Shown piece after piece: positions 47,487 to 63,924 of a DNA stretch of 64,000 nt (its first letter is position 1; each line of letters opens with the position of its first letter). Position numbers and translations under genes: made by a program. The notes below the pieces were generated by a model. The model was given only the letters and a program-made list of their open reading frames with translations. It was not told the origin of the DNA and searched no databases. The stretch is from a virus (taxonomy: Duplodnaviria > Caudoviricetes), in the IMG/VR virus record IMGVR_UViG_3300046678_000400, positions 5,463 to 69,462 of that record. The stretch is one strand, 5' to 3'.

Positions 47487-48431
47487 TTACAGACTCCATG
47501 CTTGAACCAAATTGACCTGCACGGGTTCGCTATGGTGCAGGATTTGAGCATACAAGTCGTTTGGCATGTATTTCTTGACAAAGTTGTTCAAGAAATCCTT
47601 TGCCAGCTTCTTGTCGCTTTCGTTGATGGCCTTCTGCAAGGTTTCAGCGTTATATGCCTTGCAGGTTTGTTCGTCTTCCCACAACTCCAGATGGCGGTTT
47701 TCACGAACGAAATCAACAACAAAATCACAAATGTTATAGACCAATTTCACCGTTTCAGGCGAACGCAACCAGAAGTTGCTTGTTGCACGATATTCGACGC
47801 CGTAATCGTTTTCTGGCTTGCTGGGTCGGTGATAGCCAGCCTTGCCATAAAGTTTACGGCGTGCAGGCGAATGCGGGTCTTGGTCGATCCAGAGCGAAGG
47901 AATGCCCAGGAACAGATCAAGCATACGGACAACCCAAACACGACCCCACGCACGGGCAACGCCGCCGTCTTCCTCGTTCGGAGCCATTAGTGGCCATTCC
48001 TCGACGCCATAGCCAAGGTGGACGTGACCACCGGCACTACGGAAAGTGGTTTTGCATTCAGGAGCCTGAACAATGCCCATTTTATAGGCATCGAACTCAG
48101 GATCACAACCAAACACCAAAGCATCGGGGTGCTTACACTCAGCAAGCGGATATGTCGCCGACGCTTGAAGGCGAAGCTGGTACGGAGAAATGGCACGGGA
48201 AAGCCGACTTAGGCAGTTAGCGAAACTCTGCACCAAGCCATCAGCGCTATTTGCTGGGTTGATATTGACCTCGGCCAAAACGTTATCGTAAAATAACTTG
48301 TTGCCGCCGCCCAAGTCAACTTTCTCGTCCTTCGTTCCTTTGACAATGCCAATGGCACTCTTGAGGTTGCCATGAATATCAACCAACATGAACTCAGGAT
48401 CGCTACCAACACTCAATTTCGATTTCGGCAT
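47487..48431 (-). CDS. phiEco32-like COOH.NH2 ligase type 2
   Basis: VGSDPEF, DNVLAE.N, FGCDPEF, RSAGGHVH, LYGKAG..R, GVEYRATSNFW. Confidence 0.9.
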   Translation of the reverse strand: MPKSKLSVGSDPEFMLVDIHGNLKSAIGIVKGTKDEKVDLGGGNKLFYDNVLAEVNINPANSADGLVQSFANCLSRLSRAISPYQLRLQASATYPLAECKHPDALVFGCDPEFDAYKMGIVQAPECKTTFRSAGGHVHLGYGVEEWPLMAPNEEDGGVARAWGRVWVVRMLDLFLGIPSLWIDQDPHSPARRKLYGKAGYHRPSKPENDYGVEYRATSNFWLRSPETVKLVYNICDFVVDFVRENRHLELWEDEQTCKAYNAETLQKAINESDKKLAKDFLNNFVKKYMPNDLYAQILHHSEPVQVNLVQAWSL

Positions 48432-52535: not shown

Positions 52536-53002
52536 TTATCCTTGATGGAATAATTGTACCATTTTCCATCTATTAATGTTTGATGTGAAAAATCACTTTT
52601 GGCAAATCTCAAAATAACATGATAATCATCTCTGTATAAAACGTCTGTTAGTGTTCCATCCGTATAAAGTTTCTTTTTATTTACAAATCCTGAATTTGTA
52701 CAGATTATCATTTCTCCATTTGCTTCTATGTGATCTATGCACTTATCAATTTTGTTGCATGGAACTACGCCAATAACTGTTTTAAACTTATATTCAGTTG
52801 GAAAATTTAAAAAGTCTGGGCACTTTACAGATTTTAGAATGGCCACATCAAACAATTCTGGAAGTGGAATTAATGTTTTGTTATTAAATCTTTTCAGTAG
52901 AAGCATCAGGCTTATTTCGGTATCGGTCATAACTTTAGATATAGTGGTCTGAAAAAAATATTTTACACTATATTATTGCATAAAGATTTTTTTAGGAGTT
53001 TT

Positions 53003-53779
53003 ATGGCTAAAAAGTTACACGTTCATGCATCTTTGAGTAAAGGTTATGGTTGGAGGCGTCCAAGTTTGCCTCGCCGTCGTTCAATGTTTTCAGCAACCTT
53101 TGATGGACCGCTACCTTCATCAGTGGATTTACGTCCAGGCTGTCCAGCAATATACGATCAAGCAGATTTAGGTTCTTGTACTGCTAATGCTTTAGGAGCT
53201 TTAGCTGAATTTATTATGATTAAGGAAGGCAAGCCTGCCTTTGTTCCAAGTCGTTTATTCATCTATTATAACGAAAGAGCAATGGAAGGTTCTGTTAGTC
53301 AAGACGCTGGTGCTGCCATTAGTGATGGCGCTCAAGTCCTTGCTGTAAAGGGTTGTCCACATGAATCAATTTGGTGGTATAACACAGCTAAATTTGCAGT
53401 AAAACCAAATAAAAAGGTTTTCGCTGATGGATTACAGCATTTGGTTGATGGAGTTTCAGGTGTAGAGCAAGATTTGACAGAAATGCGCAAAACTTTAGCT
53501 GCTGGTTATCCAATCGTAGGTGGTTTTACCGTATATGATAGTTTTGAAAGTGACGCAGCTGCCGCAACTGGTATTATTCCAATGCCGAAACATTCTGAAA
53601 ATGTTCTCGGTGGTCACGCTGTTATGCTTGTAGGATACGATGATTCAAAGCAGTGGTTTATTGTTCGCAACAGCTGGGGAACAGGATGGGGTGATAAAGG
53701 TTATTGCTATATGCCATACGCTTATTGGACAGATTCTCAACTATCTGATGATTTCTGGACTGCCTTAGCTATCGCATAA
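53003..53779 (+). CDS. Papain-like (C1A) cysteine peptidase
   Basis: DQADLGSCTANA, SRLFIYYN, GGHAV, RNSWG..WG..GY; AGGAG RBS. Confidence 0.92.
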   Translation: MAKKLHVHASLSKGYGWRRPSLPRRRSMFSATFDGPLPSSVDLRPGCPAIYDQADLGSCTANALGALAEFIMIKEGKPAFVPSRLFIYYNERAMEGSVSQDAGAAISDGAQVLAVKGCPHESIWWYNTAKFAVKPNKKVFADGLQHLVDGVSGVEQDLTEMRKTLAAGYPIVGGFTVYDSFESDAAAATGIIPMPKHSENVLGGHAVMLVGYDDSKQWFIVRNSWGTGWGDKGYCYMPYAYWTDSQLSDDFWTALAIA

Positions 53780-55866: not shown

Positions 55867-56664
55867 ATGTTTGATGGAATTAAAAATTGGTTAGCTTCTT
55901 TTAACCATGAAAAAATAATTAAAAACATCTTTAGCGTCTGTCGATGGTTTAATATCAAACTCACTACGGCGTTTGATATCACCACGACTGTACACTGGTC
56001 TGTTGCTGCCTTTATCCTAGCGGCGCTTTTTATTGCTGGACCCATGTATTGTGGAATAATGTTGTTGGTTTTTATGTGTGTTGTTCCACATGAGTATGGT
56101 CATGCCTTGGCCGCTCGTATGTTTGGGATTAAAACAAGAAGCATAGTTCTATATCCTCTTGGCGGTGTTGCCCTACTTGAACCAAATCCAGAAATCCAAA
56201 TGATAAGAATGAAAGAGTTTGTAGTTGCCATAGCTGGACCCATTGTGACATTAGCATTATCAATGATCGGTCTTGGTGCAATGTTACTTGGTAGTTTGTT
56301 TGAAGAAAATTTCCAAACATCTTTTTCGGCTTATCAAGGTGGTTTTTGGTTCTATTTATTCATTATTAATTTGTCTCTATTCATATTCAATATGATCCCA
56401 GCGTTTCCAATGGACGGTGGTAGAGTATTACGATCTATCCTGTCATGCTTTATGAATCATGCTCTAAGTACGAAAATAGCATTCTATATCTCAATGTGTT
56501 TTTGTATCCTATTTGTCATCGGCGGTATCTTTGCAGGAAACTTCATGTTGCTAATTATTGCTGCGTTTATTTACATGGTTGGCAAGCAAGAAGTTCAACA
56601 AGCCCAACTAATGGGGCAAATGCAGGAAGAAATGCAAGCCGCAAAAAAAATTGAAAAAAGTTAA
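55867..56664 (+). CDS. Site-2 (M50) intramembrane metalloprotease
   Basis: HEYGH, LYPLGG, AIAGP, NMIPAFPMDGGR. Confidence 0.92.
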   Translation: MFDGIKNWLASFNHEKIIKNIFSVCRWFNIKLTTAFDITTTVHWSVAAFILAALFIAGPMYCGIMLLVFMCVVPHEYGHALAARMFGIKTRSIVLYPLGGVALLEPNPEIQMIRMKEFVVAIAGPIVTLALSMIGLGAMLLGSLFEENFQTSFSAYQGGFWFYLFIINLSLFIFNMIPAFPMDGGRVLRSILSCFMNHALSTKIAFYISMCFCILFVIGGIFAGNFMLLIIAAFIYMVGKQEVQQAQLMGQMQEEMQAAKKIEKS

Positions 56665-58870: not shown

Positions 58871-58942
58871 GCGGGTGTAGCTTAATGGCGAAGCGTAACG
58901 TTGCCAACGTTAAGACTGTCGGTTCGAGTCCGATCACCCGCT
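58871..58942 (+). tRNA. tRNA-Gly(GCC)
   Basis: Full cloverleaf, loop TT-GCC-AA. Confidence 0.95.
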
Positions 58943-58943
58943 C

Positions 58944-59197
58944 TTTCGTTCCGAGTCGTCGCTGTAACCCAAAAGGTTATAGAGGAAGTTCACGACGATA
59001 CTGCTTGTAGGCAGGAGAAAAAGCTCTTTGCGAAAGCATAAAGCAAGTATCGAATGCACTGCCGAGTTCGCAAGCCAAACAGACCTAGCCGGTGAGCAGG
59101 GCTTTGACGGTCGGGTTGGTGCAGCCGAAAGGCAACAAGCTGGATGCTTGTTAGATAAATGACGACATAGAACAGAATCGTGGCTACGGGAACGAAA
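58944..59197 (+). ncRNA. rnpB: RNase P RNA, minimal (S-domain truncated)
   Basis: GAGGAAGTTCACGA / ACAGAATCGTGGCT P4 with bulged U; P1; P2 GTCGTC/GACGAC; P3; P6 CTGCT/AGCAG; P15-P18; AGATAAAT. Confidence 0.9.
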
Positions 59198-59201
59198 ATT
59201 C

Positions 59202-59274
59202 GGGCCAGAATGTACCAAGGCGGCGAAGAGCGCTTGCAACGCACTTGTGAAGAGTTCGATTCTCTTCTGGTCCA
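59202..59274 (+). tRNA. tRNA-Ala(TGC)
   Basis: Cloverleaf, G3-U70. Confidence 0.9.
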
Positions 59275-59289: not shown

Positions 59290-59625
59290 ATGTACCTGTT
59301 TGTTTACGGCACTTTGAAAGAAGGGCTACATAACAATCACTACTTGGAAGATCAGGAATTAATAGGAAATGCAGAAACAAAACCTTATTATCGTTTGTTC
59401 TGCAATGAAACTTTCCCGATGATGATAAAAGACAGAGAATTAGGTTATTCTGTGTCTGGCGAAATATGGGAAGTTGACGAAGACATTATTGATGAAATCG
59501 ACCGACATGAAGTTCTTTATGAACGTCGATTAATCAGAGTGAAGGACTTTAAGGAAGAAGTTTGGGCTTACATCTATCAGGGAAATTTGGATGAAAGCCA
59601 AGAGTGCTATGGAGAGTGGCCGTGA
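59290..59625 (+). CDS. Gamma-glutamylcyclotransferase (AIG2/YtfP-like)
   Basis: LFVYGTLKEG, VSGEIWEV, IDRHE, VWAYIY; GGAGG RBS. Confidence 0.9.
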   Translation: MYLFVYGTLKEGLHNNHYLEDQELIGNAETKPYYRLFCNETFPMMIKDRELGYSVSGEIWEVDEDIIDEIDRHEVLYERRLIRVKDFKEEVWAYIYQGNLDESQECYGEWP

Positions 59626-60252: not shown

Positions 60253-60323
60253 AGGCGGTTATTTCAATGGTAGAATGTATGTGTGACACGCATACGACAT
60301 AGGTTCGATTCCTATACTGCCTA
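60253..60323 (+). tRNA. tRNA-Val(GAC)
   Basis: Cloverleaf, loop GT-GAC-AC. Confidence 0.85.
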
Positions 60324-60334
60324 CTGTAAGTTTT

Positions 60335-60406
60335 GAGCATGTGGTCGAGAGGCGAGGCGGTTGCCTGCAAAGCAACATTACGGGGGTTCAAATCCCTCCA
60401 TGCTCT
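60335..60406 (+). tRNA. tRNA-Cys(GCA)
   Basis: Cloverleaf, U73. Confidence 0.92.
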
Positions 60407-60407
60407 C

Positions 60408-60852: not shown

Positions 60853-60923
60853 AGGCGGTTATTTCAATGGTAGAATGTATGTGTGACACGCATACGACAT
60901 AGGTTCGATTCCTATACTGCCTA
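60853..60923 (+). tRNA. tRNA-Val(GAC), identical copy
   Basis: Identical to 60253-60323. Confidence 0.85.
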
Positions 60924-60985
60924 CTTTTGGCGAAAGCCTAGAATATAACTCCGGTGAAAAACGGCTGGGTTATTCGCCAAAATTT

Positions 60986-61057
60986 GAGTCCGTAGCCAAG
61001 CGGTAAGGCAATAGTCTGCAAAACTATTCATCGTGGGTTCGATTCCCACCGGACTCT
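60986..61057 (+). tRNA. tRNA-Cys(GCA) 2
   Basis: Cloverleaf, U73. Confidence 0.95.
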
Positions 61058-61067
61058 CTGTTAGTAT

Positions 61068-63236: not shown

Positions 63237-63320
63237 GGAAGTGAACCGAATGGCTAGGGGGCTGCTTGGAAAGCAGTTGGGGCAGAAATGCCTTTGCAGG
63301 TTCGAGTCCTGTCGCTTCCG
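63237..63320 (+). tRNA. tRNA-Ser(GGA)
   Basis: Long variable arm, G73. Confidence 0.92.
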
Positions 63321-63601: not shown

Positions 63602-63688
63602 GGAAGGTTTGGCACATTGGCAAGTCCGGTCGTCTACTAAACGATTAAACCTGAAAGGGTTTTGTTGATTCGACTTCAACACCTTCCG
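63602..63688 (+). tRNA. tRNA-Ser(ACT), rare A34 anticodon
   Basis: GTCGT-CT-ACT-AA-ACGAT, long variable arm, G73. Confidence 0.82.
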
Positions 63689-63754
63689 CTTGTATGAAAA
63701 ATGCAGGGTAATTTCGCTTCATGAGCGGAATTGGGATGCATCCACCTGCAACCA

Positions 63755-63841: not shown

Positions 63842-63924
63842 GGAAAGGGTCCGGTTGGTCGAGGACACCGCCTTGAAAGCGGCTGGGGGTAGCACCTTCG
63901 CAGGTTCGATTCCTGTCCTTTCCG
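63842..63924 (+). tRNA. tRNA-Ser(TGA)
   Basis: Long variable arm, G73. Confidence 0.92.

Follow-up and report, generated by a model that had tools for sequence, protein, structure and literature searches.

Bacterial RNase P RNA is about 350-400 nt long, and its specificity domain (S-domain; P8-P14 with CR-II/III) binds the T-stem-loop of the tRNA. The RNA is commonly considered a universal ribozyme of cells. The locus described here, in which a 254-nt stretch between phage tRNA genes can be folded into the catalytic domain (C-domain) of such an RNA, raises the question whether a phage can carry an RNase P RNA that has dispensed with the S-domain, and what such an RNA would do.

A short RNase P RNA gene in a phage tRNA array

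The gene is located at positions 58944-59197 (+) of the window, by which we mean the whole 64-kb stretch of DNA that was analysed. The window belongs to a 69.5-kb IMG/VR virus record with a completeness estimate of ~14%, and codes for a large terminase, a primase and a glycosyltransferase, based on PHROG matches. The viral record, the terminase and the primase bear out the preliminary description, which had called the RNA phage-encoded. From these three genes and the low completeness it follows that the record is a fragment of a large phage, probably a huge one. A blastn comparison with GenBank phages did not reveal a close relative of this phage.

The mini RNase P RNA gene occupies an intergenic slot inside a tRNA array (Table 1), and 23 further tRNA genes lie on the same strand beyond the tRNA-like element at its 3' side. 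None of the open reading frames within 58944-59197 resembles a gene, a promoter and terminator scan around the RNA gene gave nothing above chance, and there were no tRNA-maturation enzymes among the neighbouring proteins.

The tRNA-like element, which has a counterpart at L002:1501-1589, combines a good acceptor stem and T-arm with an aberrant D-arm, and is not called by ARAGORN. It directly precedes the ribosome binding site (RBS) and ATG of the next gene, and is 81.5% identical to a stretch of the huge phage LR756511.1 that is likewise situated ahead of an RBS and ATG. Its role might be that of a processing signal that defines both the 3' end of the RNA and the 5' end of the mRNA.

The array contains the pair tRNA-Val(GAC)/tRNA-Cys(GCA) twice (60253-60407 and 60853-61058), with identical D- and T-arm segments in the two Val genes, and tRNA-Glu(UUC) and tRNA-Pro(UGG) are duplicated as well, which suggests local duplications. 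The tRNA-Ser at 63602-63689 has a rare anticodon, ACU, and its T-arm (GATTCGACTTC) is variant, and two low-scoring Rfam tRNA matches (63237-63320 and 63842-63924) were not called by ARAGORN. Near the array are also a GGACT gamma-glutamyl cyclotransferase (59290-59625, +), a phiEco32-like COOH-NH2 ligase (47487-48431, -), a papain-family C1 peptidase (52976-53779, +) and an M50 peptidase (55867-56664, +), which look like a peptide-ligation or modification set.

Table 1. Coordinates of the mini RNase P RNA elements and of the adjacent tRNA features in the window
Feature	Position	Strand	Remarks
tRNA-Gly(GCC)	58871-58943	+	Abuts the RNA 5' end directly; ARAGORN and Rfam, 67.6 bits
P1, 5' strand	58944-58952	+	Pairs with 59189-59197; 9 bp; 9/9 pairs covary in A1
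P2, 5' strand GTCGTC	58955-58960	+	Pairs with 59161-59166 GACGAC; 100% paired, 5/6 double changes
P3 hairpin, 7 bp and 5-nt loop	58963-58981	+	Pairs in sequence; closing pair covaries
CR-I and P4, 5' strand (GAGGAAGUUCACGA)	58982-58995	+	Bulged U at 58990; P4 partner 59178-59185
P5, 5' strand	58996-58998	+	Pairs with 59068-59070; 100% paired, 2/3 pairs covary
P6 pseudoknot, 5' strand CUGCU	59001-59005	+	Pairs with 59095-59099 AGCAG in the P17 loop
P7, 5' strand GGCAG	59010-59014	+	Pairs with 59059-59063 CUGCC in sequence
Specificity-domain remnant, 44 nt, replacing P8-P14	59015-59058	+	Constrained fold
GCAA (J5/15), P15, P16, P17, L15 GGGUU loop	59070-59122	+	GGU at 59114-59116
Two hairpins at the P18 position	59124-59151	+	Both in MFE and constrained fold
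CR-IV (AGAUAAAUG), P2 3' strand, J2/4, CR-V (AUAGAACAGAA)	59153-59177	+	Near-invariant family-wide
tRNA-like element	59202-59273	+	4 nt downstream of the RNA; RF01852, 16.8 bits only

Detection with Rfam models and a phage-specific model

At the gathering threshold, Rfam found only tRNAs in the window. The bacterial type A model RF00010 gave no match to the window copy even at E<=10, either with loose filters or on a 271-nt slice, nor did the type T model RF02357 at E<=10. The single RNase P match that Rfam provided was a global alignment of the 271-nt slice to the archaeal model RF00373, with 7.4 bits and E=4. Rfam alone is not sufficient to identify the window copy, and the C-domain-only matches to RNase P models that had been anticipated were not obtained in usable form.

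A blastn search against GenBank phages yielded a 40-nt match (92.5%) between the 3' end of the RNA and an unannotated intergenic region of Stenotrophomonas phage DLP_6 (also written DLP6). At this locus, approximately 105774-106018 of KU682439.2 and adjacent to a tRNA-Arg, lies a homolog of full length that shares the conserved blocks and differs in a compensatory way in P1, P2 and P4. Well over a hundred loci were then obtained by scanning IMG/VR with sequence patterns. Five of the IMG/VR homologs aligned to RF00010 globally (model positions 1-367), with 54-67 bits and E values of 1e-14 to 1e-20, all of them below the gathering cut-off of 100 bits. In these alignments P1, P2, P3, CR-I, P5, P15-P17, CR-IV and CR-V were matched, and 105-154 model positions of the S-domain were reduced to 2-8 nt.

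A covariance model, named R1, was made from 14 other phage members, leaving out the window. As a result of writing its structure line with a single bracket type, P2 and P4 were mis-nested, and 14 of the 45 pairs were assigned wrongly because P4 crosses P2. These wrongly assigned P2/P4 pairs served as an unplanned negative control, with 34-51% of the cells paired compared to 73-98% for the helices that were written correctly. When applied to the 64-kb window, R1 gave exactly one match, at 58946-59195, with 75.9 bits and an E value of 9.5e-19, covering the full model (positions 1-183). The model also recognizes bona fide cellular rnpB genes (with 199-275 bits for RF00010, and one archaeal gene with 217 bits for RF00373), which, together with the global alignments of the homologs to RF00010, supports the derivation from type A that had been put forward. 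The extra hairpins that the window copy has at P18 caused R1 to misplace its P15-P17, and the pair counts given below were therefore taken from MAFFT alignments.

Architecture of the window RNA

As shown in Table 1, the elements of a bacterial C-domain can be laid out over the whole RNA, and the 254-nt stretch is more stable than shuffled sequences (MFE z-score -4.2). The 5' strand of CR-I/P4 matches GAGGAAAGUCC of RF00010 when aligned via the homologs, and CR-IV, which occupies 59153-59161, and CR-V align to AGAUgAAUG and ACAGAA of this model, respectively. The core that is kept comprises GAGGAA, the bulged U of P4, the GCAA of J5/15, which is the equivalent of E. coli A248/A249, the GGU of L15, AGAUAAAUG and ACAGAA. 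In alignment A1 (see below), G127 C128 A129 A130 and G171 G172 U173 are invariant.

Since only 44 nt separate the two strands of P7, P10-P14 and CR-II/III are absent, and this, with the collapse of the same region to a few nucleotides in the homologs, upholds the loss of the S-domain that had been proposed from the window alone. In the constrained fold, the remnant forms an irregular hairpin with a GAAA cap and a second, small one. At the P18 position there are two hairpins, GCC-GAAA-GGC, located at 59124-59133, and a stem of 5-7 bp with a UGGAU loop; such hairpins are optional in the family, and are missing from approximately two-thirds of the members. The inserts that the window copy has inside P7 and at P18 are found in no close homolog, and their hairpins can be drawn in the constrained fold, so that the labels of the preliminary description for these hairpins (P8, P9 and a ~16-nt hairpin inside P7, and two helices at P18) are tentative.

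We noticed that the RNA contains a perfect 7-bp complement, CGAUACU/AGUAUCG (58996-59002 with 59046-59052; RNA positions 53-59/103-109), that rivals P5 and P6. The unconstrained MFE structure uses this helix and reaches -87.6 kcal/mol, versus -69.5 kcal/mol for the family fold calculated without P4 and P6. Conservation of AGUAUCG extends to L003, L007 and L083, in which the segment has no complementarity to P5. Going by these folding calculations, the complement may act as a folding trap or as a switch, or may be coincidental.

Covariation of the core helices

Two MAFFT alignments, neither of them fitted to a structure, were used to count base pairs. A1 contains 17 sequences including the window, with helices in window numbering, and A4 contains 20 sequences without the window. 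P4 and P6 were written as pseudoknots in both. In A1, 95.0% of the cells were paired, against 62.0% in shuffles (0 of 500 reached the observed value) and 31-41% when the partners were slid by 1-3 columns, and 38 of 42 pairs showed changes on both sides. The corresponding values for A4 were 92.8%, 63.5% and 31-43%, with changes on both sides in 39 of 46 pairs. Among the individual helices in A1, P1 was paired in 91.5% of the cells, with changes on both sides in each of its nine pairs, and P15, P16 and P17 were paired in 98%, 98.5% and 90%. The P6 pseudoknot (CTGCT/AGCAG in the window) was paired in 81%, with double changes in 5 of 5 pairs, and examples of its alternative forms are AGCUCAC/GUGAGCU in L006 and GUGAGAA/UUCUCAC in DLP_6. 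For P7 (helix 7), the model-based alignment gave 88.7% paired cells and double changes in 4 of 5 pairs.

The core helices are real and under selection. The pairings of P1, P2, P4, P5, P6, P7 and P15-P17 in the preliminary description are backed by this covariation, and the GGU and the CR-I, CR-IV and CR-V blocks are in place. For P3, the pairing in the window stands and its closing pair covaries, but the length of this helix varies among the homologs.

The P4 helix deserves separate mention, since it had been described as deviating at positions that are normally conserved. Its sequence in the window is GAGGAAGUUC, compared to GAGGAAAGUC in bacteria, and an ungapped comparison with E. coli shows that A67-U359 has become G-C and G68-C358 has become U.G, whereas the bulged U and the length of the helix are unchanged. 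The deviation is not specific to this copy: the G-C/U.G form is shared by ~55 of 78 candidates and is compensated. P4 (AGU-U-CACGA/UCGUGGCU in A1) consists of 8 bp and a bulged U, and is 100% paired in 17 of 17 sequences in A1, with double changes in 6 of 8 pairs, and in 20 of 20 sequences in A4. The 'odd' P4 is therefore a compensated subfamily signature and not decay. Aside from the canonical form (GAAAGUC) and that of the window (GAAGUUC), a third variant, GAAACUC, occurs in L078, L068, L065, L060 and L031 (alignment A3, columns 90-98).

A family of short RNase P RNAs in phages

The survey for similar short RNase P RNAs in phages that had been suggested was productive: among 100 sources, R1 identified 64 members with E<=1e-5. 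Their size ranges from ~147 to 440 nt, with some members of just 147-162 nt, and the window copy is among the more divergent ones. Same-strand tRNAs are present within 3 kb of 52 of the 64 members. In 30 cases a tRNA is adjacent, at a distance of no more than 30 nt, and in 22 of these it lies 2-14 nt downstream; 12 of the 64 members have no tRNA gene within 3 kb. There is one copy per complete genome, as seen in DLP6, a cultured Stenotrophomonas phage in which the homolog is unannotated, in the 595-kb LR756511.1, and in two IMG/VR records that are 100% complete (527 and 533 kb).

Some of the shortest forms are preceded by a near-consensus promoter. In the ultra-minimal members of 147-156 nt (L014:9729-9875, L016:8985-9132, L011:1548-1703 and L005:7655-7807), P7-P9 and P18 are entirely gone, and a covarying loop-loop pairing takes the place of P6 (GUUGAG/CUCAAC, GGUAG/CUACC, GGCAG/CUGCC). 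L005 has a TTGACA-17-TACAAT promoter immediately upstream.

A scan of 185,579 cellular genomes for the CR-V signature returned mostly chance matches or ordinary rnpB. When R1 was run on 100 of the cellular loci, it found one strong mini form, and also gave weak matches to RNAs that are ordinary full-length RNase P RNAs according to Rfam. The strong mini form (L201:178-392, +) is 215 nt long, scores 102.5 bits on the phage model, has a tRNA alongside and has no Rfam match at gathering. The contig of 2.3 kb on which it lies was binned with an Actinomycetes MAG, and the locus is probably a phage fragment that was mis-binned into a bacterial genome. Another locus (L224:4170-4453, -), from a Muribaculaceae MAG, is situated close to tRNAs on a contig of 6.7 kb. 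Its RNase P RNA of 284 nt, with a size between those of the cellular and phage forms, reaches 199 bits with RF00010 and 49 bits with the phage model.

The family belongs to phages. Judged by its sequence and by the pairings that it shares, the window RNA is a divergent member of this large family of C-domain-only RNase P RNAs, which descends from type A. That it might instead be a functionless piece of decaying host rnpB, or a chimeric assembly, would fit with a family that scores below the Rfam gathering cut-off, a window copy that RF00010 fails to match, and a record that is only ~14% complete, yet we hold this to be extremely improbable. The 64 members show compensatory changes in nearly every helix, which in our view refutes decay, precisely the same domain is deleted in all of them, complete phage genomes including that of a cultured phage keep one copy each, and cellular genomes provided a single strong mini form in 100 loci, on a very short contig. 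The covariation extends over more than 60 phage contigs, which means that the window RNA is not a decaying pseudogene, the explanation against which the preliminary description had asked for covariation among homologs.

Putative function and protein partner

The protein subunit RnpA binds to a site in the C-domain. The earlier remark that the window has no rnpA proved to be valid for the whole record, in which PF00825 was not found, and the same search was also negative for ten further carriers of the RNA, whose genomes are 98-100% complete in at least six cases. A phage-encoded RnpA was thus rejected for all 11 records, and a protein partner, if there is one, would have to be supplied by the host.

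We consider it reasonably probable that the RNA is a mini RNase P ribozyme that is transcribed within the tRNA array and cuts phage pre-tRNAs, probably together with host RnpA. Since no promoter stands out and the gene touches tRNA-Gly, the simplest inference is that it would be transcribed polycistronically with the phage tRNA array, and that its ends would be released by the same processing as those of the neighbouring tRNAs. The folded RNA would then act as a ribozyme that removes the 5' leaders of the phage's own pre-tRNAs, presumably borrowing host RnpA as protein partner. The gain for the phage could be extra tRNA-maturation capacity in infection, or independence from the host. The elements that are known to touch substrate or metal ions are all conserved, namely P4 with its bulged U, GCAA in J5/15, the GGU loop, CR-IV and CR-V. 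In bacterial RNase P, the GGU loop pairs with the 3'-CCA of the tRNA and A248 contacts residue -1. The window tRNAs do not encode CCA, so that the conserved GGU-CCA contact would need prior CCA addition.

The preliminary description had linked the RNA to partly aberrant tRNAs of the phage. This link was dropped, since all 24 of the 24 window tRNAs have the GG of the D-loop and a canonical T-loop, and with it the notion that the RNA serves aberrant tRNAs.

The RNA could also be a non-catalytic mimic, which would bind host RnpA or another factor by way of its conserved C-domain surface and thereby titrate or redirect host RNase P. The lack of RnpA genes in the 11 records would fit with this, as would the changes in the window subfamily at positions 67 and 68 of P4, which are highly conserved in bacteria. 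However, these changes are compensated, with the helix and the bulged U retained in 100% of the sequences, and substrate elements for which a sponge has no need (GGU, GCAA, P15-P17 and P6) are either invariant or covarying. Moreover, a phage with 24+ tRNAs of its own to mature would defeat itself by blocking RNase P. We therefore regard a mimic as quite improbable.

Assuming that the RNA is an active ribozyme, the question becomes what it cleaves. We incline, with limited confidence, to a natural C-domain-only phage RNase P that would mature tRNAs without reading their elbow, using either host RnpA or no protein at all. E. coli RNase P RNA from which the S-domain was deleted is ~500 times less efficient towards a model substrate (PMC5839562), and a C-domain-only enzyme may for this reason be a poor general tRNA processor. 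An RNase P RNA that consists of only the C-domain does cleave simple hairpin substrates (PMC5839562), and with the elbow-measuring S-domain gone, the ribozyme might be directed at non-standard substrates, either tRNA-like or hairpin signals in phage mRNAs or host RNAs, and function as a processing or takeover nuclease. The conserved aberrant tRNA-like element that follows the RNA, ahead of an RBS and ATG, could be such a substrate, and the members without a tRNA gene in their vicinity fit with this as well. Nevertheless, this seems unlikely to us, as most members are situated inside same-strand tRNA arrays, and the invariant GGU loop and A248-equivalent point to tRNA-type substrates. Maturation of the phage's own tRNAs is thus the function that we favour.

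Implications

We found no description of a phage- or virus-encoded RNase P RNA in full-text searches of a literature collection with few subscription journals, and there is no mention of one in a 2024 RNase P review, the P Finder paper or the DLP6 genome paper. If our interpretation is true, viruses would have their first known RNase P RNA, archaeal type T would be joined by a second, independent natural loss of the S-domain, and the tRNA supply of these phages would be independent of host RNase P. A natural C-domain form of bacterial type that is under selection would show that the catalytic domain suffices in vivo, and would make it possible to test directly what share of substrate recognition is really due to the S-domain. 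It would also add a putative ribozyme to the translation-related genes of huge and T4-like phages. The fact that the whole family falls below the Rfam cut-off constitutes a blind spot in annotation, and the homolog in the cultured phage DLP6 offers a ready experimental system.

Comparison with known systems

One of the closest known systems is type A RNase P RNA, represented by E. coli M1 (rnpB, RF00010). They have in common P1-P5 with the bulged U in P4, P6, P15-P17 with the GGU, the GCAA of J5/15, and CR-I, CR-IV and CR-V, which in type A read GAGGAAAGUCC, AGAUGAAUG and ACAGAAnCCGGCUUA, respectively, and the homologs align over the whole of RF00010. In contrast to type A, the phage RNA is without the S-domain (P8, P10-P14 and CR-II/III) and measures 254 nt instead of ~350-400 nt, P18, whose GNRA loop docks into P8 in type A, is optional and J2/4 is AUAGAACAGAA in the phage family, and the P4 pairs 67/359 and 68/358 are G-C and U.G in the subfamily of the window. 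The phage RNAs also differ in being phage-encoded, usually within tRNA arrays, and in scoring under the Rfam cut-off.

Small stable RNAs are known from the tRNA cluster of phage T4, where species 1 and 2 (rnaC and rnaD) are co-transcribed with the tRNAs and freed by tRNA-processing enzymes. To our knowledge, their function is unknown and a similarity to RNase P RNA has not been reported.

With regard to domain content, the phage family is the same as an engineered E. coli C-domain ribozyme (Eco CP RPR), which is active without the S-domain, with or without the protein C5, and which requires P15-17 and the P6 interaction and can do without P18 (PMC5839562). The phage RNAs likewise keep P15-17 and P6, and have an optional P18. 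The difference is that Eco CP RPR is a laboratory deletion, whereas the phage RNAs are natural, under selection, and contain a P7 stub and a capped hairpin.

The closest natural analogue is the archaeal type T RNase P RNA of the Thermoproteaceae (RF02357), which has kept the C-domain, is modelled with P6 and has lost most of the S-domain (PMC3579882). Its C-domain is of the archaeal type and works with archaeal proteins, P2 has only 3 bp, P15 is shorter and P18 is absent (PMC3579882). Like type T, the phage RNA is a natural C-domain RNase P RNA with a P6 that was missed by older Rfam models. Unlike type T, it has a P2 of 6 bp, a bacterial type A core with the GGU, hairpins at the P18 position and no match to RF02357. 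Type T and the phage RNA are independent, convergent reductions of RNase P RNA.
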